Origin: a virus
Lineage: Duplodnaviria > Caudoviricetes
DNA: 64,000 nt
Virus record (IMG/VR): IMGVR_UViG_3300025120_010521
Reading direction: 5' to 3' (one strand)
Below the pieces are notes generated by a model. That model searched no databases. It had not been told where the DNA came from and saw only the letters and a list, made by a program, of their open reading frames with translations. The position numbers and the translations under genes are program-made. Shown here in pieces: positions 4,161 through 62,756 of this stretch (position 1 is its first letter; every line of letters starts with the position of its first letter).

Positions 4161-4364
4161 CTACGCCGAGTGTTTTGGCATTTTTTTTTCTACAAACCAA
4201 ACATGTTTTTTAATTACAGGATCATATTTTCGTTGTCTTATTTTCATTGTTCTTTTTTCACCTTTGGTAGGTTTACGAACATAGTATCTTGTTCCTGTAT
4301 CTGGTTTGTTTTCTTCTGGTACTAGCATTTTTAATTCAAATGTTTTCTTACTACTTTTTGCCAT
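4161..4364 (-). CDS. rpmG: 50S ribosomal protein bL33 (Cys-free type)
   Basis: TGTRYYVRK...RKYDPVIKKHVWFVEKK matches the bL33 KYDP...H..F.E.K signature. Confidence 0.85.
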   Translation of the reverse strand: MAKSSKKTFELKMLVPEENKPDTGTRYYVRKPTKGEKRTMKIRQRKYDPVIKKHVWFVEKKMPKHSA

Positions 4365-8114: not shown

Positions 8115-8384
8115 TTATTTTTTATTTTCTACTATATCTTGTGAGCTTCTAATGAAATTTTCGTCTTGGTCTTCTTTTGCTTTAGTAGGTGATATTATTT
8201 CTTCTAATATATCTTTTGGATCAACTTCGTTGCTTTGTAGTGCCAACATGCATTCTTTAACTGTTGGTCTTAAACCCATTCTATGCATTTTTGAAGCAAT
8301 CAATACTAATTCAAATTTTGATAAATCCGGGTTAGTTCTAAGAACGTCATCTGCTAATACTAATTTTTTTTCTTGTACTGTCAT
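8115..8384 (-). CDS. Divergent RNA polymerase omega (RpoZ)-like protein
   Basis: SKFELVLIASK resembles RpoZ NRFELVLLAxxR; ALQSNEVDPKDILEEII resembles ALxEI...PxDLxExLI. Confidence 0.5.
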   Translation of the reverse strand: MTVQEKKLVLADDVLRTNPDLSKFELVLIASKMHRMGLRPTVKECMLALQSNEVDPKDILEEIISPTKAKEDQDENFIRSSQDIVENKK

Positions 8385-8472: not shown

Positions 8473-8490
8473 ACATTGCATTTATTTATA

Positions 8491-16350: not shown

Positions 16351-16412
16351 AACTAATTCCTAATAGTATTGTATATACTAGTGTATTTATACTGTCAAGA
16401 AAAATTAGAAAC

Positions 16413-16979: not shown

Positions 16980-17017
16980 ATCTATATAAATCCCTATATA
17001 GTATATTTATAATTGGA

Positions 17018-34368: not shown

Positions 34369-35653
34369 AATTTCTCTTAAATAATTCTTTCAATTGCGGT
34401 ACTATTTGTTTAATATCAGTTTTTCTAATATTATCTAAATCTAATGTAAATTGAACAAACTCCTTTAAATACTTTTTCTTTTCTTCAGTACTATAGTAAT
34501 TATCATTTTTTAATCCACTAATAATATTTTTAAAGCCAATACTTCCTTGTGGTTTTTCATTATCATCATATTGCCACCAATCATCTAGTGGAAGTTGCTC
34601 ATTAACTAATAACTTTACTGCTTGTTGTTTAATTTTATTAGGTAGTACATGAAAACTAAGATATCTTGGATTAACAACAACATTTTTAAAATATATTTCA
34701 TTTGTTGGCTTACGTATTTTTAAATACCATTTCCAAATATTTGCAATATCAAATATGTTATATGCTTGAACTGTTACTGTGTAGATTATCATTGTATTTG
34801 CTAACATATTGAAATTTTTAATATTATCTTCTAACTGGTTAATTGTAAAATTATCTCCACCTCTTATATATTGGTATAATTCTCCTGTTCCTTCTATACT
34901 AATATGTAGTTTTACCATCTTAAAGTTTTTTGCAATTTTATATAATCTATCATTAAAGATTGTACCATTAGTGTTTATATCAAGTATAACATCTTTAGCA
35001 ATTCCCCATTTGATAAATTGTTCCATTATTTGATAATTTTGTTCTTCCATTAATGGCTCTCCGCCAGTTAATTTTAAGAATTGTAAATTTTTAAAATGTT
35101 CTTTTTTATCTAATAAATTTTTGATAATATCAAATTCTAATTTTTCATATTTGCCTATTTCTCTATCTGGCATCCATGATGGAAACTTTTCTTTTAACTG
35201 TATTTCATCTTTTATCCAAGTACTAGATATTAAACCTGAACACATTCTACATTTTAAATTACATTTGTTTGATGGATTAATTTCCAAATACCAAATATCC
35301 GGATCTGAGTTAGTTTTGTATGTTGCCTTTTGTATTTGTTCAGGCTCAAAATTACTATAAAAATATTGTCTTCTTGAGCTTCCACTTGTTTGTTCTTTTT
35401 TCAAACACTTTATACAAACTGGATTATCAAACTTACTGTTACTCCAGCTATCTCTTAATTTAACTGCTTTATCTAAATACCACATTTCTGATAAAGTATT
35501 TTCATAAAGATTACCATATGGCTCTGTTGCTACTGCATCTGCATAAACATTTCCTGTCCAGTCAATAGTAAGACTATGCCATGGTGCAAGACATTTTTTG
35601 TTAATTGTCTTGTGCCAATCCCAATCTCTATCAAAGTAATCTTTATTAATCAT
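34355..35653 (-). CDS. Radical SAM protein
   Basis: CLAPW; CNLKCRMC; LTGGEP; NTNGT. Confidence 0.9.
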   Translation of the reverse strand: MINKDYFDRDWDWHKTINKKCLAPWHSLTIDWTGNVYADAVATEPYGNLYENTLSEMWYLDKAVKLRDSWSNSKFDNPVCIKCLKKEQTSGSSRRQYFYSNFEPEQIQKATYKTNSDPDIWYLEINPSNKCNLKCRMCSGLISSTWIKDEIQLKEKFPSWMPDREIGKYEKLEFDIIKNLLDKKEHFKNLQFLKLTGGEPLMEEQNYQIMEQFIKWGIAKDVILDINTNGTIFNDRLYKIAKNFKMVKLHISIEGTGELYQYIRGGDNFTINQLEDNIKNFNMLANTMIIYTVTVQAYNIFDIANIWKWYLKIRKPTNEIYFKNVVVNPRYLSFHVLPNKIKQQAVKLLVNEQLPLDDWWQYDDNEKPQGSIGFKNIISGLKNDNYYSTEEKKKYLKEFVQFTLDLDNIRKTDIKQIVPQLKELFKRNYETV

Positions 35654-36735
35654 TAAAAATAATTTTCCTGGTTACCTTTACGTCTAACGTCAGATGTTAA
35701 ACAATGTACTCCGCCATCCCAAAAATATTGATGTCTGAATTTCCAATATATAGGAGTAACTCCATTTTTTTCTAACTGTGCAAATACTTCTTTATCTGTT
35801 CCTGTGCAAATAACTTTATCTTCTGATATGCTTAAAACATTTACATCAAATACTGTTTCATCTACGTATCCAATCCAATGAGATAACCAACGTTCAATAT
35901 AGTCTTTGTAAAATCTTTGTTTACGTGTTGTTTTAAAATCTTCTGGAAATTTTGTTCCAGACTGTGCAATAATGCAATCCCAAGATTTTAATTTTTCTGG
36001 TATCCAATCTTTTTTCCATGTTAATAGTAATCCAGGTTTGATTAATGCAATCTTACCATCTACATGTCCACCGACTGGTACTTCATTAAATGTAAATTCA
36101 GATAGCTGTTGTTTATACCAATTTAAACCCTGTTCTGTACCTTTTCCTTTTACAGGATCTTTTTGGTTAGACTGTGAATGAAATATATCTTTACCGCATT
36201 TAATTAAATTTGCAGAATGAAATAATACTTCTCCATTACGCCAATATTCGTGATATGTTTTTTGATTTAGTTGTGGCTGTGGCATAGATACCCATTCAGC
36301 CCCATACGTATTATATTCTTTTAATATATCTCTAGAACATAATGTTTCTAAAAATCTTGAATAATCTTTTGTATATGCTTCGATAATTTTATTTCCAAAA
36401 CACCCAATCAAATCTCTTGGCTGTAAAGGTTGATTTATATATTCTATTTCAAACCCGCCTACATTATATTTTTGCAAAGGATTGTGCAACGGTTTTGGTC
36501 GCTGTACGATAACACTTTCTTTTTTTAGTATATCAACAAGTACTTCTAAATCTTCTGCCGTTTCAGTTAATACTTTTTTTAATAAGTCTTTTGCTTCTTG
36601 ACTAAACTTATCACTATGATCAAACGTATCAGCATTATACGGTGTTCCGACTATTACTTCTTCTAGCTTTTGAAACTCTGAATATGTTTGTACTAAAGGT
36701 TTATCTGCAAAAAACTCGTCATAATTATTAACCAT
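35653..36735 (-). CDS. Amidinotransferase (glycine/inosamine amidinotransferase family)
   Basis: LEEVIVG, PRD, GHVDG, FWDGGVHCLT (catalytic Cys). Confidence 0.82.
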   Translation of the reverse strand: MVNNYDEFFADKPLVQTYSEFQKLEEVIVGTPYNADTFDHSDKFSQEAKDLLKKVLTETAEDLEVLVDILKKESVIVQRPKPLHNPLQKYNVGGFEIEYINQPLQPRDLIGCFGNKIIEAYTKDYSRFLETLCSRDILKEYNTYGAEWVSMPQPQLNQKTYHEYWRNGEVLFHSANLIKCGKDIFHSQSNQKDPVKGKGTEQGLNWYKQQLSEFTFNEVPVGGHVDGKIALIKPGLLLTWKKDWIPEKLKSWDCIIAQSGTKFPEDFKTTRKQRFYKDYIERWLSHWIGYVDETVFDVNVLSISEDKVICTGTDKEVFAQLEKNGVTPIYWKFRHQYFWDGGVHCLTSDVRRKGNQENYF

Positions 36736-37310
36736 TATTTTTCAAACTCCTTACTATCATAATTACTATCTCGGTATCTTCTTTTAACTATACCGTCATA
36801 ATATTTTTTATCCCATTTATCATAATACTTTGTATTTTGATGTACCCATTCTGATTTTTCATTTAAATCACTTAATACTTGTAATTGTATAATTGCTAAA
36901 CCTTTATTGCCAGAACCAATTCCAGCAACAGGACCTTTTTCTGTGCCTACTGACTTTTGCTTGTCTTCTGCTGTATAGGATGTATAGATATAAAGATCTT
37001 GCTTAACTGCTTTTTGTTGATTATCCGTTTCCCATTTTTCAAGTTGTTCTAATGAATAATCTTTTGGATCTGCAATTAGCATAACTAACTGTTTTCCTTT
37101 TGGATAGTTTAACATTTTAGCATCAGCTTGTTCAAATAAATCAGTTTTTGTCCAAACTACATCAATTTCGTCTCGTTTAAATCCCATCTTTGCAAATGGG
37201 CAAACAGCCATACCGTTAAGTTCTGGTCGCGACTTTGTTACATGATCTTTCATGTCTTGCCATTTTTTTTCTAATTTAGATTGTTCCGCCATCTGCAAGT
37301 TCTTTTTCAA
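36735..37310 (-). CDS. Hypothetical protein (DUF1415-like VCPFA motif)
   Basis: LNGMAVCPFA. Confidence 0.5.
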   Translation of the reverse strand: MKKNLQMAEQSKLEKKWQDMKDHVTKSRPELNGMAVCPFAKMGFKRDEIDVVWTKTDLFEQADAKMLNYPKGKQLVMLIADPKDYSLEQLEKWETDNQQKAVKQDLYIYTSYTAEDKQKSVGTEKGPVAGIGSGNKGLAIIQLQVLSDLNEKSEWVHQNTKYYDKWDKKYYDGIVKRRYRDSNYDSKEFEK

Positions 37311-38745
37311 GTTTTTTATCTATACTTTCACCTGCATCTGTTTGAACTAAAGTGTCTTTTGTTTCATCTAACAAATCAGCCATTTCAGGAAAAACTTCTG
37401 CAAAGTTTGTATTTCTTTGTTTATCAAATTTTATTATGTATTCTCTAAACTGAGGCATACGTTGTGACCAGTCTTCACTCATCATAAACTTAACCATACC
37501 TTGCAATCTTTTAATACCATAATTTGCATCAATAAATTTTTCTTTTGACGGTGCTCCCGACAACTGCCAATTTTCTTCTAGCCAAGGATAAAATTCCTCA
37601 TACTTTTGTTTTACTTTATCTTTAAACCATTGTGGAAATACTTTTACATTTAATTGTCCAGGCCAGTATACAAAATGATAATTGATCATGCCAGCACCAA
37701 AAGGCCATATGTTAATTTTTTTAAAGTTTTGTTTTAATTTCCATTTAATAAAATCTGGAACGTAATAAATGTTTAACGCCTGTACAGCACACGCCACAGT
37801 AACTTCAATGTTATCACCTGTATTATCTAACAAATGAAACTGTTTTACTGTATGATCCCATTTACTTGGGTACCTAATATAATCGTTCATTTCACCAATT
37901 GAATCTACTGAATAATGAAATATTACTTTTTTAAAATGACTCCATATTTCAAATAATCTTGGTGGCATTTCTAATCCATTTGAATTATATCTTATTTCAA
38001 TTTGTTTAGCATATCCGCGTTTAATAACTTCTTCTAATAGTGTATAGTGTTCTTCAATAATAGTTGACTCACCACCTGCAAAATATAATTGATACATGTG
38101 AGGTATTTGTTCATACAATTGATCCCAAAATTTTGGATTGTCTTTATGCCAGTTATATGTTGCACCGTCATTTTTTCCTTTATTATCCCAACCCATTGTT
38201 TGTTTTAAATCTTTATTTTCAATAGTAGGATAAACATCTAACCAATCCTTAATCCATAATGATGAATCATGTGGCGAACACATAATACATTTTAGATTAC
38301 ATTTAGATCCCATACGTAAATCCAAGTATCTAATTTTAGGAGGTATACCACCATCTTCTGCTGTTTCACCTATAATTTCATCAATAGAATAAATGCTTGT
38401 CCATTTGTCTGTTTCCCATTGACGTTTACTTAAATGTCCTGCCGCTTCTTCTTTGTAGCACTTTAAACATGATGCAGGCATTTCGCCATTAAGCATCTGC
38501 TTACGAACATTTTTCATATAGTCGTTGTTCCAGGCTTCCATTAAATTTGAATTGTTTAAATTAGCTGGTTTACCATTTTCAGTTTTTAATACACCTACTT
38601 GCCCACCATGTTTTTTATCGTTAGTTGCACCTACTGAACTTGCGTTAGCCGTACAGCATACTCGCATATTACCGTCTGGTCTTGTTGATAAATGCATCCA
38701 AGGTAAAGCACAAAATGTTTTTGATGGTAAATTTTTTTCACTCAT
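37276..38745 (-). CDS. Radical SAM protein with Twitch-like N-domain
   Basis: FCALPW...RVCC; CNLKCIMC; FAGGE. Confidence 0.9.
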   Translation of the reverse strand: MSEKNLPSKTFCALPWMHLSTRPDGNMRVCCTANASSVGATNDKKHGGQVGVLKTENGKPANLNNSNLMEAWNNDYMKNVRKQMLNGEMPASCLKCYKEEAAGHLSKRQWETDKWTSIYSIDEIIGETAEDGGIPPKIRYLDLRMGSKCNLKCIMCSPHDSSLWIKDWLDVYPTIENKDLKQTMGWDNKGKNDGATYNWHKDNPKFWDQLYEQIPHMYQLYFAGGESTIIEEHYTLLEEVIKRGYAKQIEIRYNSNGLEMPPRLFEIWSHFKKVIFHYSVDSIGEMNDYIRYPSKWDHTVKQFHLLDNTGDNIEVTVACAVQALNIYYVPDFIKWKLKQNFKKINIWPFGAGMINYHFVYWPGQLNVKVFPQWFKDKVKQKYEEFYPWLEENWQLSGAPSKEKFIDANYGIKRLQGMVKFMMSEDWSQRMPQFREYIIKFDKQRNTNFAEVFPEMADLLDETKDTLVQTDAGESIDKKLEKELADGGTI

Positions 38746-38746
38746 T

Positions 38747-39844
38747 TTATATATTTACCTCCTCAAACTGAGCACCAAATGGATCAAATTCTGTACCACA
38801 TTTTACTGAACAAACTTTTAATTTTCCATCGCCACCATTACAAGAAGTTTTTTTCCAACTTGATTTTATGTTATTAAAAAATTCACCTTCTAACACTTTT
38901 TTAAATCCATGTTTTAATACTGACAATTCATCTAGCCCACCTACGTTATCAATGAATCTCCAAATTTGATTTTCACCTGGCTTTTCCCACCACTTGTACA
39001 TTTGTCCTGCTACCCAACAACACGGCATTAAGTGTCCTGTTGCACTAACATAAACGTTCATGTCTTTTAAAACTTTGCAATTAATACTAGCTTTGTCATA
39101 ATAGTTGTTCATTGTTCCATATTTTTCTTTTAAAATATCTTCTTTCTTAAGAGCTTTGTTTACATATTTTTCATCTGGCTTCGTAAGTTTTTGTGTTTCT
39201 TTTCCTTTACGATTTACGCCTTGGTGTTCTTGTTTTCCTTTTGCTTGGACATTACTAAAAAATCTACCTGTTTTTTTACTCATAAACTTTTCAAAACCCA
39301 TAATCTCTGATAATGCTTTTGCTTCTTCTACTTGATGTTGATTATGACCAAATATTAAATAATCCCATCTTGCTCTACCGCCTGCTCCAATAAATGCTTC
39401 AGCTGAATCCATACATATATCCCAATTAACATTTTGTCTATACAGATGATTAGTATCTTTTAATCCATCTAAGCTAAAGATTACATGGCCTTTGCGACCT
39501 ATTACTTTTGCAAGTTCACTCCACCATTCTGGTTTTTTAGCACCAGCATTGGTATTCATACTTAACCATAAATTTGAATTCTGACTACGCAAATATTCCA
39601 TTACTTCCAATGAATCTTTTGCTACTACAGGATCGCCCAAGTTTCCACACATAAACAAACTGTCTAATTGTTTTACTAAATCAGGTTGGAAAATTTGTTT
39701 ACAATCATCTAATGATAATTCATCTAAGTTTATGTTTGGATTTAAATCTCCGCCGTTTATATTACGATCACACTGTAAACAAGCCGCTTGGCATTTTGCT
39801 GTAATTTCTAAATGAACTGTTCTAATATCACTATATGCATACAT
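38747..39844 (-). CDS. Radical SAM protein with C-terminal SPASM-like Cys cluster
   Basis: CQAACLQC; MCGNLGDP; MPCCW. Confidence 0.88.
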   Translation of the reverse strand: MYAYSDIRTVHLEITAKCQAACLQCDRNINGGDLNPNINLDELSLDDCKQIFQPDLVKQLDSLFMCGNLGDPVVAKDSLEVMEYLRSQNSNLWLSMNTNAGAKKPEWWSELAKVIGRKGHVIFSLDGLKDTNHLYRQNVNWDICMDSAEAFIGAGGRARWDYLIFGHNQHQVEEAKALSEIMGFEKFMSKKTGRFFSNVQAKGKQEHQGVNRKGKETQKLTKPDEKYVNKALKKEDILKEKYGTMNNYYDKASINCKVLKDMNVYVSATGHLMPCCWVAGQMYKWWEKPGENQIWRFIDNVGGLDELSVLKHGFKKVLEGEFFNNIKSSWKKTSCNGGDGKLKVCSVKCGTEFDPFGAQFEEVNI

Positions 39845-39845
39845 C

Positions 39846-40841
39846 TTACTTGATTCCTATTATCATGTATCTTGTATACTTACCAAGAACCAGTTCACCT
39901 CCATAAAGATGTGTTGTCATAGGAGCAATTGATTTAAAATGATCAACGTTATCTACACAATTAATATGTTCTGGTAGTTCTTTGTAGTCATTTGATTGTA
40001 AAATACACAATTTTCCGTTAGGAATATTATTCCACCATTCACTCCAATTCTCAATATGCTCACAACTTGTATTAATAATTGTATTTGGTTTATCAAAAAG
40101 TTCACGTGCTGTACCGTTTGATCTTAATGTTGTATATTGGTATTCATTAAAATTAATTTTATGTATATCTTGTGTAGTTGCTTTAAATTTCCATTCATCC
40201 ATTACCCATGGTTTGTTAATAGATTCTGCAATTCTCCAACAAGACTCATCTATATCAAAACTTCTTATCTTATCTAAATGTACTTTTTTAGATTCAAATA
40301 GCATAGTTGCTAATGTACCATACCAACCTGCACACAAAAATACAGTACCTAAATGCATACCAATTTTTTCAACTTCAGATACCAACCATTTTTTACTATG
40401 CAATTGCCCTCTAGCAAATGCATCTTTTATATCACTTTTAGGAAAGTTTCTTAAAGTTTTTATTAATGTATCTAGTGTTTCACTTTTAACAAATAATGAT
40501 AATGTTCTTCTTAATACTTCAATATCATCACCTTTGTTAATAACTGAGTTGCGAATTAGATCAATGTTTTCGTTTCCATCAATTGCTTGTATTACTCTAA
40601 ATATTGAATGTATATTTTTTTCTAAAACTGCTTTACGAAGTTCATTGAACAAATGTCGTGTTTTTGTATTTGTGCCAATCAAACGAAATATACTTGATAA
40701 ATCTTGATCCAAGACTGCTCTTCTTAGATCTTTTAATTCATCTACATTGTCATACAATAATTCAAATCTATCTAATAACTCGTATGTCTCTAGATGAGAT
40801 TTGGATTTTGTTGAACTGTTGTTCGAGCCATCCAAAGTCAT
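39846..40841 (-). CDS. Class I SAM-dependent methyltransferase-like protein
   Basis: VFLCAGWYG, IRSFDID, INTSCEH. Confidence 0.55.
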   Translation of the reverse strand: MTLDGSNNSSTKSKSHLETYELLDRFELLYDNVDELKDLRRAVLDQDLSSIFRLIGTNTKTRHLFNELRKAVLEKNIHSIFRVIQAIDGNENIDLIRNSVINKGDDIEVLRRTLSLFVKSETLDTLIKTLRNFPKSDIKDAFARGQLHSKKWLVSEVEKIGMHLGTVFLCAGWYGTLATMLFESKKVHLDKIRSFDIDESCWRIAESINKPWVMDEWKFKATTQDIHKINFNEYQYTTLRSNGTARELFDKPNTIINTSCEHIENWSEWWNNIPNGKLCILQSNDYKELPEHINCVDNVDHFKSIAPMTTHLYGGELVLGKYTRYMIIGIK

Positions 40842-41499
40842 TTATCTTGCTTAATGCCTCCATGTTGTTTTTGTTTGCTTCACCATATTCTCTACCAGCA
40901 ATTGCACCTGCTATAGCAAATTCGCCAAATCCTCTATCGCCGCCAACACTACACCATATATTTAAACGTTGTTCGGTTTCAGCATCTTTTTGTTTATCAA
41001 TAACTTTACTTGCAAGTTTAGTACATTCTCTAAATGCTGATTTAAATGTGTTAAAAGGATCAGTATTAAATGCTGTAATATTACTTATCGATGGCATAGC
41101 TTTAAAGGCACCTTTTTGTCCTTCTTTGTTTGCAACTGATGTTGTAAAATCAATTCGCCAATCATTAGCTTCACGCAACGCCTGAGTTGGAAATAATTTA
41201 ACTCCGCCATATCCGTATACTAGATCGTTTATAGGATTTTTACATCTCCAAACATGTACACAATGCTCATCCCATGAGCTAGGTTTAAATGAAAAATCAA
41301 AGTCTTCGTTAAGTTCAGCATCGGCATCGACTACATAAAAACTTTTAGTATATGCCAATTCTGCACATTTTTTGTGTGCTTCAAATATTCCTTTTACACC
41401 TTGTACTCTACGAGCATAGGGAAACTTACTAATAAGTTTTTCCCATGTTTGTTCAGCATAGGGTTCTTTGTAACTTAAATGAAATATATCTAATGCCAT
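40768..41499 (-). CDS. GT-A glycosyltransferase-like protein
   Basis: VKGIFEAHKKCA; YVVDAD (DxD); YGYGGVKL. Confidence 0.65.
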   Translation of the reverse strand: MALDIFHLSYKEPYAEQTWEKLISKFPYARRVQGVKGIFEAHKKCAELAYTKSFYVVDADAELNEDFDFSFKPSSWDEHCVHVWRCKNPINDLVYGYGGVKLFPTQALREANDWRIDFTTSVANKEGQKGAFKAMPSISNITAFNTDPFNTFKSAFRECTKLASKVIDKQKDAETEQRLNIWCSVGGDRGFGEFAIAGAIAGREYGEANKNNMEALSKINDFGWLEQQFNKIQISSRDIRVIR

Positions 41500-41505
41500 G
41501 TGTTT

Positions 41506-41534
41506 ATTATACTTGTTTTATTTAAAATAATCAA
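41506..41534 (-). promoter_or_regulatory. Sigma70 promoter, leaderless
   Basis: TTGATT-17-TATAAT, 6 nt to ATG. Confidence 0.65.
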
Positions 41535-41718
41535 GAGGAAATGAATAAATTCCTAGTGTTTGGATATCTGGATATCTTAATTTTACAATAACATATTGTT
41601 CATCAGTTACTGCAACAATACTATCTGCGTGATTAGGAATATAAGTTCTTGGAATTGTTTTATCTTGTGAAAACTTTTCATGTCGATCGTAGTCTTCGTA
41701 TCCAACTAACGTGTACAC
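41518..41718 (-). CDS. Hypothetical protein
   Basis: ORF track. Confidence 0.55.
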   Translation of the reverse strand: MYTLVGYEDYDRHEKFSQDKTIPRTYIPNHADSIVAVTDEQYVIVKLRYPDIQTLGIYSFPLDYFK

Positions 41719-42326
41719 TACCTGCTTTCAACAATTTTATCAATTAGGCCAAACTCTAATGCTTGATCCGGATTCATGTAATTATCACGTTCCATTGCAT
41801 CTTCGACTGTTTTAAGATCTTTACCACAGTGTTTTACATACAGGTTATTTAATCTTTTCTTTGTATCTAAGATATCTTTTGCATGTATTTCAATATCTGT
41901 TGCTTGTCCTTGAAATCCTGCTGATGGCTGATGTATCATTATTTTTGAATTTGGTAATGATATCCTTTTACCAGGTGCTCCTGCCATTAGTAACAATGAC
42001 CCTGCACTTGCAGATAAACCAATACTTACTGTTGATATATCAGGTTTTACATATTGCATAGTATCATACATTGCCAACCCTGCTGTTACCGAACCGCCTG
42101 GCGAATTGATATACATGTAAATGTCTTTATCTTTAGAATCTGATTCTAAAAATAATAATTGGGCACAAACTAAACTTGATGTTGCATCATCAATTGGGCC
42201 AGTTATAAAAATAATTCTTTCTTTAAGTAAACGTGAAAAAATATCGTAACTTCTTTCACCTCTTGACGATTGTTCAACAACCATTGGTACTAGATTCATA
42301 TTCATCTCCTTAGACATTAAATTCAA
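41718..42326 (-). CDS. clpP: ATP-dependent Clp protease proteolytic subunit (true start probably MNLVPM, 42299)
   Basis: [36 protein letters not shown]. Confidence 0.96.
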
Positions 42327-43806
42327 CTCCTTGTGCCAATGGCAAGTCTGTTGAGTAGTTTACAGTTACCGTACTTCTACGCATGTATTGTTTCCATGCA
42401 TCAGAACCACTTTCTCTTCCACCTCCAGTGTGTTTTTCACCACCAAAGGCACCGCCAATTTCAGCCCCACTAGGACCAATATTAACATTTACAATACCAC
42501 AATCAGATCCATTTGCTCCAATAAACAATTCCGCTTCTTGTAAATCTTTTGTAAAGATACAACTGCTTAAACCTTGTGGTACATTATTGTTAATTGCTAT
42601 TGCTTCTGCTAGTTCATCATATGGTATGATATAAAGCAAAGGTGCAAAAGTTTCTGTTTTTGTAATTTCTTCTGCTTTAGTTAATTCAACTATTGCTGGT
42701 GTTACATATACACCATCACGTTCTAATTTTGTTCCGCCAGTAACAGTTCCAATACCTTGTTGCTCACATTGTGCTATTGTTTCTTTCATATTTTCATATG
42801 CTTGTTCACTAACTAACGGTCCCACTAGTGTGTTGCTGTCTAAAGGATCGCCAACTGTAATTTTTGCATAATATTTTTTAAGAATTTTTACTAGCTGTTC
42901 ATGTATTGATCTATGCACAATAACTCTACGCAATGTTGTGCATCTTTGTCCTGCTGTTCCTACAGCACTAAACAGTATGCCTCTAATTGCTAATTTCATA
43001 TCTGCATTTGGTGTAACTATCATTGCATTGTTACCACCAAGTTCCATTAATACTCTGCCAAATCTTTCAGTAACTTGTTTACCTAGTGCTTGACCCATTT
43101 CTGTTGACCCTGTTAATGAAACAAGATTAATATGTTTGTCTTGTGCTAACCATTCTGCATGTTCGTTTTTACCTATAACAAGTTCTAATATATTTTGTGC
43201 TTGAGCTATACCAGAACGTTCTACTGCTTTTTTAAATATTGCCTCACAAGCAAAAGATACTAAAGGTGTTTTAGGCGATGGTTTCCAAATTGTTGTATTA
43301 CCGCAAACTGTTGCAATAGCAAAGTTCCAACTCCATACTGCTACAGGAAAATTAAATGCTGAAACTACTCCAACAACTCCTAACGGATTCCACATTTCTT
43401 GCATACGGTGACCAGGTCTTTCACTTGGCATTGTTAGTCCGTATAACTGTCTTGATAAACCAACTGCAAAATCACAGATATCAATCATTTCTTGAACTTC
43501 ACCTAAACCTTCTTGAAATATTTTACCATTTTCAATAGTAACTAATCTTCCAAGCTCATTTTTATACTTACGAAGTTCTTCTCCAAATAATCTAATTAAT
43601 TCACCTCTTTGCGGTGCAGGAACTGTTCTCCAATCAATTTGTGCTTGTTTAACATTAAGTACTTTTGCTTCATACTCTTGCCTAGTAGTATGTTTTACTG
43701 TGGCAATTTCAGTAGCATCGATTGGGGATACTACTGATTCACCATTTTGTACTGTATATAAATTTTGATCTACGCCTATAGATTCTAATATCTGTTTTGT
43801 GTTCAT
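42310..43806 (-). CDS. Aldehyde dehydrogenase (ALDH7/aminoadipate-semialdehyde-like)
   Basis: [42 protein letters not shown]. Confidence 0.9.
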
Positions 43807-46004: not shown

Positions 46005-46316
46005 TTAAACTTTTTCTATTGTGCAGTTTAAAGGATGTCCTTGTGACCTTGCCTGTGCTGTAGTTTCAATTGCTTTTTGCTCTGCAATTTCATGTGAGTA
46101 TGTACCTGCTATGCCTTTACCATCTTCATGTATTTTTAACATAACAGCTTCTGCATCTTGTGGTGATTTTCTAAAGATTGTTTTAAGGATTTCTGTAACA
46201 AAGTCCATAGGAGTATAATCGTCGTTTAGTAAGTACACATGGTATAAACTTGGTTCAGTAATTGTAGTTTGTGTACTTGTTGAAGCTTGTACGTTTGCAT
46301 TTCCTTGTTCTGTCAT
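46005..46316 (-). CDS. clpS: ClpS N-degron adaptor
   Basis: YHVYLLNDDYTPMDFV; MLKIHEDGKGIAG; HPL. Confidence 0.93.
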   Translation of the reverse strand: MTEQGNANVQASTSTQTTITEPSLYHVYLLNDDYTPMDFVTEILKTIFRKSPQDAEAVMLKIHEDGKGIAGTYSHEIAEQKAIETTAQARSQGHPLNCTIEKV

Positions 46317-48742: not shown

Positions 48743-48808
48743 TATATTTATACAGTTTACTGTATATATATTATATAAGCATGAATTTTAAAAAGTCAAG
48801 AGTCTAAT

Positions 48809-54047: not shown

Positions 54048-54404
54048 TTATCTCCTTTTGACTTTTTTCTTTGGAGTGCCGTATTCAGCCGCCTCGGCTT
54101 CTTTCCTTAATTTAAAAGCTCTTCTTATTGCACGTTTTTTATCTTCACGTTTTACAAAAGATGGCTTCATGTAGTATCTTCTATCACGAAGTTCTTGCAT
54201 GACTCCTTCTTTTAATAACATCTTTTTAAGTTTACGCATAGCTTTTTCAACGTTGTTGTCAACAACTGCAACAGCCATACCTGGTAACTTAGGTGGACGT
54301 GGTCTTCTCTCTTTGAAATCTCTTTTGTTAGAATTAGAATTATATTCTATATCAAAAGATTTTACATCAATTTTTTGTCTAGGTTTTCCTGTTTTCATAT
54401 TCAT
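54048..54404 (-). CDS. rpsU: 30S ribosomal protein bS21 with basic N-terminal extension
   Basis: NNVEKAMRKLKK...EGVMQELRDRRYYMKPS..KR. Confidence 0.88.
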   Translation of the reverse strand: MNMKTGKPRQKIDVKSFDIEYNSNSNKRDFKERRPRPPKLPGMAVAVVDNNVEKAMRKLKKMLLKEGVMQELRDRRYYMKPSFVKREDKKRAIRRAFKLRKEAEAAEYGTPKKKVKRR

Positions 54405-54413
54405 AATACTCTT

Positions 54414-54441
54414 ATATTAACATCTTTACAATATTTGTCAA
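54414..54441 (-). promoter_or_regulatory. Sigma70 extended -10 promoter of rpsU
   Basis: TTGACA-16-TAATAT preceded by TGT. Confidence 0.55.
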
Positions 54442-54998
54442 CTCTTTTTTGTATCACTATCTTTATCTTTAGTAATAACAGCTATAATTCTGTTTCCAGC
54501 TTGTTTTGGTGGTGAATCATATTTAGTTTGCTCTAATTTTTTAACCATCATATTAATTTGATCAATGAACATTCTGCCGTTTGGTATTTCTCTACCTCGT
54601 AGCTTCATAACTATTTTTACCTTATCTCCATCGTTAATAAACTCTTGAGCTTTTTTAAGTTTAACATTAAGATCATGTACATCAATATTTGGCCTAAATT
54701 GTAATTCACGTAACTCTATTCTATTTTGTCTTTCAAGTTTTTTCTTTTGCTTGTCTTTTTTTTGTTTTTCATAGTTCCATTTTCCAAAATCCATAATACG
54801 ACATACAGGCGGATCAGCTTTTACTGTTGTGCATATAAGATCTAAATTACTTTCTTTTGCTTTTGAAAGTGCTGTTTTATTATCAACTATTCCAATAAAT
54901 GCTCCATCTGGGTCAATAAGTCTAACTTTTGGAAATGTAATTGCTGAATTTAACAATACACTTGGTTGTTGATTTCTGTAACGAAATGGTTTTTTCAC
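54438..54998 (-). CDS. infC: Translation initiation factor IF3
   Basis: VRLID, DPPVCRIMDFGKWNYE, ELQFRPNIDVHDLNVK, KVKIVMKLRGRE; ATG start. Confidence 0.93.
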   Translation of the reverse strand: MKKPFRYRNQQPSVLLNSAITFPKVRLIDPDGAFIGIVDNKTALSKAKESNLDLICTTVKADPPVCRIMDFGKWNYEKQKKDKQKKKLERQNRIELRELQFRPNIDVHDLNVKLKKAQEFINDGDKVKIVMKLRGREIPNGRMFIDQINMMVKKLEQTKYDSPPKQAGNRIIAVITKDKDSDTKKS

Positions 54999-56254
54999 TA
55001 TGCTCCGTTTTTCTTATCTACTGTTTTGTAAATTAGCATTGGTGACTTACTTTCTGTTATTACTGTATCATTAATTACAATTTTTTCAACATCTTGTTGT
55101 TTTAGTAATGGCAATTCATATTGTAATTCTAATAGAATTTTTTCAAGAACAGAACGTAATCCTCTAGCACCAATTTTCTTTTCTAATGCTTCACTGGCTA
55201 CAACTTCTATAGCTTCTTTTGTAAATTCTAATTTTACTCCATCTAACTTAAACATTTTTTCAAATTGTTTTAACACTGCGTTTTTTGGCTTGGTTAAAAC
55301 GTGTATAAGGTCTGTATGCGTTAAACTATGACATGCTACTACAACTGGCAGTCGACCTACCATTTCTGGTATAAGACCAAATTTAACAACATCATCCGGT
55401 TGTACTTTTGATAATATTTGATCAAATTCTTCTTGTGACTCAAAGTTAGACATAAATCCCATTGATGTGTTTACATTTAATCTACGTTTAACAATTTCAT
55501 CCAAACCAACAAATGCTCCACCACATATAAACAAAATATTTGTAGTATCAACTTCAATTAAATCTTGTTGTGGATGTTTTCTTCCTCCTTGTGGCGGAAC
55601 TCTAACAGTTGTACCTTCAAGTAATTTTAATAATGCTTGTTGTACACCTTCACCTGATACATCTCTTGTAATTGATGTGTTTTCTGACTTACGTGACTTT
55701 TTGTCTATTTCGTCAATATATACAATACCTCGTTGGGCACGGTCAACATCAAAATCACAACTTTGTAACAGTCTTAGAATAATATTTTCAACATCATCAC
55801 CAACATAACCACTTTCAGTTAATGTTGTTGCATCTGCTTGGGCAAATGGTACATCTAAATAATCTGCAACTTTCTGAGCCAACAATGTTTTACCGCAACC
55901 ACTTGGCCCAGCTAATAATACATTTGACTTTTCTAATTCTACTCCGTCAACAACAGGATTATTTAATCTTTTATAATGATTATAAACTGCAACACTTAAA
56001 ACTTTTTTTGCTTGTTCTTGTCCAATTACATGTTCATCTAAATGTAATTTTAATTCATCAGGTATAATAACTTTTAAGGCTTTAGTTTCTTTGCCGTCTG
56101 CTTTTTGAATATCGTTTTCTTCTAATATTGAATAGCATAAGTCTACACATTCATTACATATATAAACTTTAGGTCCTGCAATTAGTTTTGTAACTTTAGA
56201 TCTTTCTTTACCACAGAACGAACAACTGTAGGAATCATCTTTTTTCTTAACCAT
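54998..56254 (-). CDS. clpX: ClpX ATPase
   Basis: CSFC...CNEC Zn finger; GPSGCGKT; YIDEIDK; [14 protein letters not shown]; MGF loop; GARGLR. Confidence 0.97.
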
Positions 56255-57991: not shown

Positions 57992-58014
57992 AATAATATT
58001 ATTTATATGAAATT

Positions 58015-59937: not shown

Positions 59938-60108
59938 TTAAAGATAAAATCTGTTGTACAATGAACGAAAACTTCTTCCGTTAAATTGACGTCTGTCTAG
60001 TTCACGTTGACGTCTTTCTAGGTCAGCAAGATCTTTTGATTTTGACAGATATACTTCTTCATCTGTCATTGATAATCTGTGTAACCAATTCTTTATTGCT
60101 TTAATCAT
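59938..60108 (-). CDS. 56-aa DUF3563-like protein
   Basis: EEVYLSKSKDLADLERRQRELDR. Confidence 0.65.
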   Translation of the reverse strand: MIKAIKNWLHRLSMTDEEVYLSKSKDLADLERRQRELDRRQFNGRSFRSLYNRFYL

Positions 60109-60316: not shown

Positions 60317-60489
60317 TGCCTGATCTCCTCTGTCATTAATGATAGATTATGTGATTTGTGTGGTATTGCTACCAAACTTATTTATAGCTAATATAACACA
60401 AAAAATAAGATTTACAACTGTTTTTAACGCAAAGCAGGTATGCAATTTTGATATAGCTAGTTACTTAATGCTATGCAATTTTATTATAT

Positions 60490-60912
60490 CTACTCTTTTA
60501 TAGATATACTCATAGAACGACATGATCCTTCTACCTGAGCCATTGCTTGTTCTATAGTAAAAGCATTCATATCTTCCATTTTTTCTTCGGCTATTTTTTT
60601 AATTTGTGCTTTAGTAATATACTTAATTGTATTACGCCCTGGTGTTTTACCACCTTTTTTAAGACCAACTGCTTTTAATATAAAATATGTAACAGGTGGT
60701 TTATTGAGAGTAAATTTAAAACTCTTGTCTTTATAAACTGTAATTAGACAAGGTATTGGACCTTCTAAGGCTTTTGTTTTATCATTAAAGCTCTTACAAA
60801 ATTCCATTATATTAACACCACGTTGACCTAGTGCAGGTCCAACTGGTGGGGCTGGTTTAGCCTGTCCAGCCTCTATTATTAATTTCAGAGTACCAGTTAC
60901 TTCTTTTGCCAT
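60490..60912 (-). CDS. rplK: 50S ribosomal protein uL11
   Basis: [29 protein letters not shown]; ITVYKDKSF; KPP; GSCRSM. Confidence 0.95.
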
Positions 60913-60931
60913 AAACCTCCAAGGTTATGTA

Positions 60932-61183
60932 TTATGCTGATTCAGTATTTGATTCAGCAGGTGTTTCGTCAGCAGTTGCTTCAGTTAATTTTAACTGAGT
61001 TGCAACAGGCTTACCGTTATGTTCAGCAACAATATACTCCATTGCTTGGCCTTGATCTACTTTTGTTATTCCTGCATCTTTAAATGCTGAAACGTGAACA
61101 AATACATCATTGCCACCTTCATCCGGTACTATGAATCCAAAACCTTTTGAAGCATTGTACCATTTTAATTTACCTGTACTCAT
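60932..61183 (-). CDS. cspA: Cold-shock protein
   Basis: KWYNASKGFGFI; DVFVHVSA. Confidence 0.95.
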   Translation of the reverse strand: MSTGKLKWYNASKGFGFIVPDEGGNDVFVHVSAFKDAGITKVDQGQAMEYIVAEHNGKPVATQLKLTEATADETPAESNTESA

Positions 61184-61413
61184 CTGTACTCCTTATTATA
61201 GTATACTCTGTAAGCACCATTTGTAGGCAGTAACTCACAGTGTTTTAAGCTATCATTGGCGTCAACCCATAGCTCAAATTCTTCTTTAATCTTACCTTGT
61301 CCTGTAATAACAGTAACATACTTAAGACCTTGATGCTTGTTTTCATGAACAAACTTTGTAAATTCTCTCCAAGCATCTTGTACATAATAACCATGTAAAT
61401 CTAAACTATACAT
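61180..61413 (-). CDS. Smr domain protein
   Basis: LDLHG; VITGQG; NGAY. Confidence 0.85.
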   Translation of the reverse strand: MYSLDLHGYYVQDAWREFTKFVHENKHQGLKYVTVITGQGKIKEEFELWVDANDSLKHCELLPTNGAYRVYYNKEYR

Positions 61414-61442
61414 TATTATATACTAACATTATTTATAGTATC

Positions 61443-61853
61443 CTATATTTTATCAGCTTCTAATAACCTTTTACGGTTCTCTAAATGCTGATCTTCTATA
61501 GCATCTTTACTTTGTCCATTATATAATACTGCATACGATTCGTCAACCATTATTTTATTAATAGTTGTATCTTTCCAAACTAGCTCTCCTAATATTCGTC
61601 CAAACTTGCCTGTTTTGTCTTTATGTGTTCTAAGTGTTGCTGTACTACCCACTGGATAATGGTCTTTTACAAATTGTTTAGATAATAATCCAAACTTTTT
61701 TTCTTCTAAATCTCTTGTTCTTGACTCGGGGGTATCTATACCTAAAAGACGTACTCGTTCTTTGTGCATCCAAATTCCAAATCCTAAGTCAATATCAACG
61801 TCAACTGTATCTCCATCAACTACTCTTAATATTGTACATTTATATTCGTGCAT
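61443..61853 (-). CDS. Thermonuclease (SNase) family
   Basis: VVDGDTV; VRLLGIDTPE; GKFGRILG. Confidence 0.9.
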   Translation of the reverse strand: MHEYKCTILRVVDGDTVDVDIDLGFGIWMHKERVRLLGIDTPESRTRDLEEKKFGLLSKQFVKDHYPVGSTATLRTHKDKTGKFGRILGELVWKDTTINKIMVDESYAVLYNGQSKDAIEDQHLENRKRLLEADKI

Positions 61854-62573: not shown

Positions 62574-62756
62574 TTATATGTTTTGGAATTGGCTTTTTGT
62601 TTCTATTGTTGTAATTTTATCTTTTAACCAAAGTTTGTGTTTTTTCATTACTATCAATTTATTTTCATCTGATTGATTGTTATCTAACATTCGTTCTATA
62701 GCTGTGTGTAGTTTGTTATGTTCAGATCTTAATCGGTCTAGTTCTGAATTAGACAT
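62574..62756 (-). CDS. YdcH/DUF465-like protein
   Basis: LRSEH..L...I.....MKKHKLWLKDKI. Confidence 0.65.
   Translation of the reverse strand: MSNSELDRLRSEHNKLHTAIERMLDNNQSDENKLIVMKKHKLWLKDKITTIETKSQFQNI

Follow-up and report, generated by a model that had tools for sequence, protein, structure and literature searches.

A full-length ribosomal protein uL11 gene in an uncultured T4-like marine jumbo phage

The uL11 gene and its product

The window is the whole 64,000-nt stretch of DNA that was analysed, from IMG/VR virus record IMGVR_UViG_3300025120_010521 (Duplodnaviria; Caudoviricetes). All of its genes are on one strand, and its GC content is about 0.32 and even (0.30-0.35). Positions 60490-60912 on the minus strand hold an ORF of 140 codons with an ATG start, which was identified as a gene for ribosomal protein uL11. 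The features of this locus and the other translation genes of the window are listed below with the support for each.

60490..60912, minus strand: uL11 (rplK-like) coding sequence, 140 aa (both Pfam domains, fold, dN/dS)
60916..60920, minus strand: Shine-Dalgarno GGAGG, 3 nt ahead of the uL11 ATG (GGAG conserved)
60914..60926, minus strand (letters as on the plus strand): AACCT-TGG-AGGTT palindrome over the Shine-Dalgarno (judged incidental)
60932..61183, minus strand: cold-shock-domain protein (CSD), 83 aa (Pfam CSD, 70.7 bits)
61180..61413, minus strand: mini Smr-domain protein, 77 aa (Pfam Smr, 38.6 bits)
61430..61437, minus strand: TATAAATA, T4 late-promoter consensus, 16 nt before the Smr ATG (invariant in 13 loci)
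61443..61853, minus strand: Staphylococcal-nuclease-like protein (SNase), upstream neighbour (Pfam SNase, 50.2 bits)
60379..60386, minus strand: second TATAAATA, in the spacer past uL11 and ahead of two small ORFs
54048..54404, minus strand: bS21 with an N-terminal extension, 118 aa (Pfam Ribosomal_S21, 54.5 bits)
54438..54998, minus strand: IF3 (Pfam IF3_N, 87.9 bits; IF3_C, 74 bits)
4161..4364, minus strand: bL33-like protein, 67 aa, third ribosomal protein in the window (Pfam Ribosomal_L33, 29.7 bits, cut-off 25)

The encoded protein matched both uL11 domains of Pfam, Ribosomal_L11_N (PF03946; the N-terminal, factor-facing domain) at 93.6 bits against a cut-off of 32.9 and Ribosomal_L11 (PF00298; the C-terminal, rRNA-binding domain) at 75.7 bits against a cut-off of 21.4. 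Solved bacterial uL11 chains align with its residues 1 to 138-139, interrupted by one gap of one residue, the best E value being 1e-40 (Thermotoga L11). An AlphaFold2 model built from an alignment of 38 phage and cellular sequences had a mean pLDDT of 77, and a Foldseek comparison of this model with the uL11 of E. coli, T. thermophilus, and M. smegmatis (4ybb_CJ, 2nxn_B, and 5o60_J) gave TM scores of 0.88-0.91 at an rmsd of 1.5-1.8 Å. Phage and cellular uL11 have 30 invariant columns and 21 nearly invariant ones in common across 38 sequences. The invariant ones include L11, G16, A18, P20, P22, P23, G25-G29, F38, C39, N43, T46, K111, D114, and G129, and M1, A2, K3, and K40 are nearly invariant; Ala2, Lys3, and Lys40 of the phage protein correspond to the residues methylated by PrmA in E. 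coli. The window gene is a genuine full-length, two-domain uL11 with the uL11 fold. An original prediction, made from the letters of the DNA, had described an intact uL11 with its characteristic helix in a phage genome; the Pfam domains and the end-to-end match to solved chains bear out the first point, and the helix is present, its proline-rich stretch P20-G29 being kept.

The same prediction placed the Shine-Dalgarno of uL11 within a small hairpin. The palindrome exists and covers GGAGG, but the fold of the region is at the level expected by chance when compared with shuffles (z = -0.16), and the left arm is absent from 6 of 10 related upstream regions (L003-L008). A regulatory Shine-Dalgarno hairpin was ruled out on these two grounds, and the hairpin is incidental. 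The GGAG itself is retained in all 11 of the related uL11 upstream regions.

Gene neighbourhood and viral location

The CSD gene lies 19 nt upstream of uL11 and adjoins it in every related locus read, and the end of the Smr gene overlaps the CSD start by 4 nt in a position that is conserved among relatives. In a sister clade (L005-L007 and L104), an EF-G gene (689 aa) is inserted between SNase and Smr. On the 3' side of uL11, a spacer of 229 nt is followed by ORFs of 51 and 56 aa. The cellular order (secE)-nusG-rplK-rplA-rplJ-rplL is present in the bacterial comparators and absent at the phage locus: neither nusG nor rplA was found beside the window uL11, and tblastn of the related viral uL11 loci found no nusG, rplA, or rplJ. 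The predicted placement of uL11 between a cold-shock gene and micro-ORFs, away from nusG and rplA, thus agrees with the ORF and Pfam calls. Two small minus-strand ORFs of the region also recur in relatives, one downstream of uL11 at 59938-60108 (DUF3563, 30.6 bits) and one upstream at 62574-62756 (DUF465, 43.3 bits).

The T4 late-promoter consensus TATAAATA ahead of the Smr-CSD-uL11 unit is unchanged in 13 of 13 aligned loci although the spacer around it varies, and the sister clade has it ahead of the EF-G gene at the head of the unit. The window holds nine copies of the motif, eight of them on the coding strand, and seven of these eight fall in the intergenic 10% of the window (binomial P of about 7e-7, although AT-rich spacers inflate the expectation somewhat). 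The intergenic sites, all on the minus strand, are at 8483-8490, 16384-16391, 17004-17011, 48745-48752, 58000-58007, 60379-60386, and 61430-61437. Copies stand 3-98 nt before gene starts, including those of Hsp20, a 464-aa membrane protein, and a tRNA-Thr/omega-like ORF. Late transcription of Smr-CSD-uL11 is likely because the motif before the unit is invariant, and the three genes probably form one tight unit that is expressed late with uL11 as its last gene. The second copy, past uL11, suggests that transcription of the unit either stops at uL11 or starts anew there. This late-promoter reading is a prediction from the motif rather than from mapped transcripts. A sigma-70 promoter candidate inside SNase (TTGACG-17-TATAAT, 11/12) was rejected: promoter-like sites numbered 22 against 19.7 in shuffles, and the candidate is coding sequence, conserved for the sake of the protein. 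In two more distant T4-like contigs (L105 and L106; IMGVR_UViG_3300017911_001817 and 3300017914_002840), SNase is followed 2.5 kb on by a Smr gene whose product is 42% identical, with no CSD, uL11, or EF-G; this arrangement may represent an earlier stage of the uL11 cluster.

The surroundings of uL11 are viral. Tail-fibre and baseplate matches to PHROG families are found in the window, as are a DNA ligase and six tRNAs scattered along it. An identical uL11 protein is found on nine contigs that were read, and at three of these places (ENA, JGI, and NCBI) the order is SNase-Smr-CSD-uL11-small ORFs-QueD-...-ClpX-IF3-bS21. Proteins 78-95% identical to it are encoded in the same gene order on IMG/VR contigs and on other metagenome contigs, and this synteny was seen in the IMG/VR contigs L001-L004 and in L005-L010. 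A sister genome, IMGVR_UViG_3300020477_000990 (G002; loci L104 and L180), has 328,149 bp, direct terminal repeats, a CheckV completeness of 100%, and a T4 Gp23 capsid gene (322 bits). The uL11 gene belongs to a T4-like marine jumbo phage, an uncultured one with a genome of about 330 kb. The original prediction named a chimeric contig as what would speak against it and asked for the flanking synteny; the gene order is conserved across contigs, and chimerism is excluded because the same junctions occur on independent contigs and a complete sister genome carries uL11.

The explanation that the contig is chimeric or derives from a streamlined bacterium, with uL11 an ordinary cellular rplK, is already refuted and retains next to no probability. 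It could draw on the host-like genes in which the window is rich (Suf, Clp, IF3, and NAD synthase) and on the deposited phage collections, in which the uL11 matches inspected were cellular, as in MW495066 (tRNA-Trp-secE-nusG-rplK-rplA). Against it stand the many independent assemblies with identical junctions, the lack of nusG, rplA, and rplJ nearby, the complete sister genome with its terminal repeats and T4 capsid gene, and the T4 late-promoter motifs in intergenic DNA. A search with one genome per prokaryote species also gave at most 63% identity among its best 80 loci, the top match being a Pelagibacterales isolate.

A tblastn search of 50,697 phage records gave 19 uL11 matches, none of them in Pelagibacter or cyanophage genomes, and the matches opened were cellular (MW495066 and a Salmonella contig). 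No PHROG family was matched by uL11. The record MW495066.1, deposited as 'Microcystis phage MaAM05/PhiMa05', has its uL11 within the locus 35001-43414 (L091), in the order tRNA-Trp, secE, nusG, rplK, rplA. A uL11 was reported, with several other ribosomal proteins, in 'Microcystis jumbo phage PhiMa05' (ISME J 2026, PMC13157829; MW495066). The uL11 stretch of that record is in cellular order and also occurs in Vampirovibrio chromosomes, and the six phage ribosomal proteins published for PhiMa05 may have cellular (Vampirovibrio-like) DNA as their basis. Unlike this copy, the window uL11 is isolated from every cellular neighbour and stands in a putative late unit of the T4 type.

Origin of the phage uL11 and a second viral clade

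Phylogeny against host uL11, as the original prediction had proposed, places the phage copies in one separate clade. The 32 distinct phage sequences group together with an SH-aLRT of 98 in a 126-row tree and are monophyletic (support 100/98) in a careful tree of 64 rows, where their stem measures 0.31 substitutions per site. Their identity to the uL11 of SAR11-type Alphaproteobacteria is 60-65%. The sister of the phage clade is an uncultured MAG labelled Rickettsiales, in which rplK stands in secE-nusG-rplK-rplA-rplJ-rplL-rpoB. AT-rich Campylobacterales intrude in the same part of the tree, which indicates compositional attraction, and therefore the donor can be assigned only approximately; the alignment behind the SAR11-like affinity has 141 columns. 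Compared with the rplK of Pelagibacterales (isolate ME-17, L011), the phage gene differs in length by at most one residue, is 60-63% identical, and shares the invariant residues, but the Pelagibacterales gene stands in tuf-nusG-rplK-rplA-rplJ-rplL, and the phage protein has a loop that is one residue shorter and five clade-specific substitutions.

The 55 pairwise comparisons of eleven phage uL11 alleles gave dN/dS values of 0.04-0.16, with synonymous sites near saturation, and purifying selection maintains the phage uL11 after its transfer. The SNase neighbour gene is widespread among marine T4-like phages. In a set of 80 viral loci anchored on it, uL11 was present only where SNase was at least 75% identical; uL11 is confined to the nearest SNase relatives and is thus a lineage-specific gain that was kept afterwards.

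A profile scan of IMG/VR gave 17 more contigs (L187-L203) with uL11 proteins 54-64% identical to that of the window. Near these uL11 genes, nusG, rplA, CSD, and Smr were not found. On IMGVR_UViG_3300020477_001008 (242,646 bp), uL11 (L194:3001-3426) has an HNH-like ORF upstream and a dNMP kinase downstream, with a Gp23 gene about 10 kb away. Purifying selection acts on the second clade too (dN/dS 0.04-0.15). Its sister group in the careful tree is Pelagibacterales (92/80), and the window clade pairs with the MAG (97/93); the support for all four groups together (both viral clades, Pelagibacterales, and the MAG) is 90/64. The topology of the best tree suggests two separate captures of uL11. Under the AU test a single viral clade was not rejected, with p 0.81 for the quick tree (where the constrained tree was the better one) and p 0.20 for the careful tree, and two independent captures are not claimed.

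Proposed role and precedents

A column-wise comparison of 32 phage with 95 cellular uL11 sequences showed that the near-invariant cellular positions are almost all kept, including the C-terminal rRNA-binding residues. At positions conserved in at least 85% of the cellular sequences, the phage clade has the changes N19K, E37D, S90G, L117M, and A133C, of which N19K and E37D fall within the N-terminal domain. These substitutions are conservative. N19K is also found in 8 of the 95 cellular sequences, sphingomonads among them. E37D occurs in 28 of the 32 phage sequences of the first clade and in every second-clade sequence inspected, as against 1 of 95 in cells; its presence in both viral clades is compatible with either shared descent or convergence. 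The window copy itself has Glu at 37, a reversion. It alone has Asn at 70, where 98% of the cellular and 31 of the 32 phage copies have Lys; the residue directly after it is Lys, and the change is possibly harmless. In the phage sequences, P20, P23, and G25-G29 are invariant, and P22 is retained in 31 of 32 copies. Nothing in them suggests a truncated, decoy, or RelA-blind protein.

Beyond the bS21, bL33-like protein, and IF3 of the window, five ribosomal proteins of the sister genome G002 score above Pfam cut-offs, namely bL31, full-length bL12 (132 aa), uL11, bS21, and bL33, with genes at about 122.7, 141.6, 268.8, 275.5, and 327.2 kb, and G002 also encodes EF-G and IF3. A search of G002 found no uL10, PrmA, or RelA/SpoT homologue, and no bL12 was found in three fragments of the subclade of the window. 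The proteins uL11, bL12, and EF-G belong to one functional site. Taken together, the companions in the window and in the sister clade point to a general retuning of the ribosome. With five ribosomal proteins, G002 surpasses the 'up to three' given for viruses apart from PhiMa05 (PMC13157829).

The preferred reading, which is held to be probably correct, is that the gene makes a working uL11 late in infection and that this protein joins the host 50S subunit at the GTPase-associated centre, within a dispersed set of phage translation genes. As the trees suggest, the gene would have been captured long ago from an AT-rich, SAR11-related alphaproteobacterium (the donor being approximate) and kept since by purifying selection. 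It would be transcribed late, as the conserved TATAAATA predicts, as the last gene of the Smr-CSD-uL11 unit. The protein would bind 23S rRNA at H43/H44 and replace or supplement host uL11 at the GTPase-associated centre. It would work together with the bS21, bL33, and IF3 that the phage encodes, joined in the sister lineage by bL12, bL31, and EF-G. Translation capacity would then be kept or biased while much virion protein is needed, in a slow-growing, ribosome-poor host. What the analysis establishes is the identity, integrity, and fold of the protein, the selection on it, its viral location, and the conservation of the promoter motif; ribosome incorporation, expression timing, and phage benefit are inferred. 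In E. coli, uL11 is dispensable, and supplying it may then give only a modest gain.

The original prediction also had uL11 act on the stringent response. Put fully, the phage protein would blind or force the RelA/SpoT-type sensing of uncharged tRNA in the host and, with a divergent omega-like subunit, uncouple phage expression from (p)ppGpp. RelA activity is partly dependent on L11 (review PMC7873864), a SAR11-type genome encodes a single RSH enzyme of the long form (144 bits), the hosts live under chronic nutrient limitation, and the five changed positions of the phage clade include two in the N-terminal domain; yet these changes are conservative, N19K is shared with some cells, and the complete sister genome lacks an RSH. 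The omega-like ORF (8115-8384) has no Pfam match at E ≤ 0.01 and is 52 kb from uL11. Alterations of the uL11 N-terminal domain or its proline-rich helix, as Yang and Ishiguro reportedly found in 2001, produce a relC phenotype. In the window protein, and in almost every one of the 32 phage copies, neither element is lost or altered, both being wholly intact with Pro22 included, so no RelA-blind variant is indicated. With the helix intact, G002 devoid of RelA/SpoT, and the companions of a general kind, action on the stringent response was not borne out and is regarded as unlikely.

Two other explanations leave the stringent response aside. The phage uL11 could be a resistant replacement that evades an attack on uL11 and H43/H44 by thiopeptide-type compounds or by a translation-targeting abortive-infection factor, from the host or from competitors. 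With its rRNA, uL11 forms the thiostrepton/nosiheptide site (solved complexes are among the fold matches), N19K and E37D are near that site, and E37D has the distribution given above, common in both viral clades and found once among the cells. The thiopeptide resistance mutations, for their part, map to the helix prolines, and these are unchanged in the phage protein; the window copy has gone back to Glu at 37, and we know of no defence system that targets uL11. Such evasion is very improbable. The protein could also work outside the ribosome, as an RNA-binding regulator of its neighbours or as a decoy for a host factor that binds uL11, such as the methyltransferase PrmA. Extraribosomal roles are common among ribosomal proteins, and uL11 is tightly coupled to the RNA-acting CSD and Smr genes, but no PrmA was found in G002 or G006, and conservation extends over the two domains and takes in every invariant residue that faces rRNA or factors, which fits a ribosomal role better than a single-surface decoy. 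The chance given to an extraribosomal role is accordingly very slight.

Ribosomal protein genes were long held to divide cells from viruses, and the known viral ribosomal proteins are mostly small and loosely bound, such as bS21. The site of uL11 is where EF-G, EF-Tu, release factors, and RelA act, and therefore a phage-made uL11 would mean that viruses reach the factor-binding centre of the ribosome. A bolder and rather doubtful extension of the preferred reading is that T4-like jumbo phages of SAR11-type hosts rebuild the GTPase-associated centre with parts of their own (uL11 here; uL11, full-length bL12, and EF-G in the sister lineage), made from late promoters with bS21, bL31, bL33, and IF3, so that late in infection partly phage-built ribosomes would be tuned to phage messages; uL11 may in this case have been captured twice. 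Two captures by different jumbo-phage lineages, if true, would make uL11 a repeatedly selected target. The carriers are abundant ocean phages, their likely hosts are of the SAR11 type, among the commonest cells on Earth, and any influence on translation during infection would matter for the turnover of marine carbon.

Virus-encoded ribosomal proteins, uL11 on viral contigs included, are already known, and the window copy is better documented. In Mizuno 2019 (PMC6375957), Ribosomal_L11_N is listed without comment on three uncultivated viral contigs (Suppl. Table 2) and pN/pS of viral uL11 is 0, and Luo et al. 2020 reported one ALOHA viral population with L11. The view that bS21 is the commonest phage ribosomal protein, also part of the original prediction, holds, with 1310 viral contigs in the same Suppl. 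Table 2. Both bS21 and bL12 of phages have been found in ribosome fractions of E. coli, bS21 also in purified 70S ribosomes, and bS21, bL12, bL31, and bL33 were described as peripheral, exchangeable, and virus-enriched (PMC6375957). The window uL11 is like these cases in being a cellular ribosomal gene on an aquatic phage, under purifying selection, for which exchange into host ribosomes is proposed. Mizuno 2019 only counted uL11, and the dynamic proteins listed in its main text are bS21, bL12, bL9, bL31, and bL33; the 32-sequence clade, the fixed neighbourhood, the donor affinity, the late-promoter link, and the second viral clade are added here. New are also the position of that second clade on another T4-like jumbo contig and the five ribosomal proteins that the sister genome encodes besides EF-G and IF3.

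Late transcription of uL11 would match what is reported for phage bS21, which is expressed together with late structural genes (Chen et al. 2022, PMC9723584). The bS21 of Pelagibacter phage HTVC008M and of freshwater Bacteroidetes phages (PMC9723584) is likewise a probably late-made ribosomal protein of large aquatic phages, and the window phage carries a bS21 as those phages do. The two proteins differ in site, bS21 being on the 30S platform and affecting initiation and uL11 being at the 50S factor-binding centre and affecting GTPase factors; unlike the bS21 of HTVC008M, uL11 was found in no cultured pelagiphage among the 50,697 phage records. Borgs of Methanoperedens almost always carry rpL11 (Al-Shayeb et al. 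2022, PMC9605863), and the likeness extends to a giant non-cellular element with uL11 as its most constant ribosomal gene, in a clade sibling to that of the host, but Borgs are archaeal elements, not viruses, and their acquisition of uL11 is unrelated to that of the phage. The window also encodes a full Clp set on the minus strand, with ClpX with a zinc finger at 54998-56254, ClpS at 46005-46316, and ClpP at 41718-42326 (270 bits).
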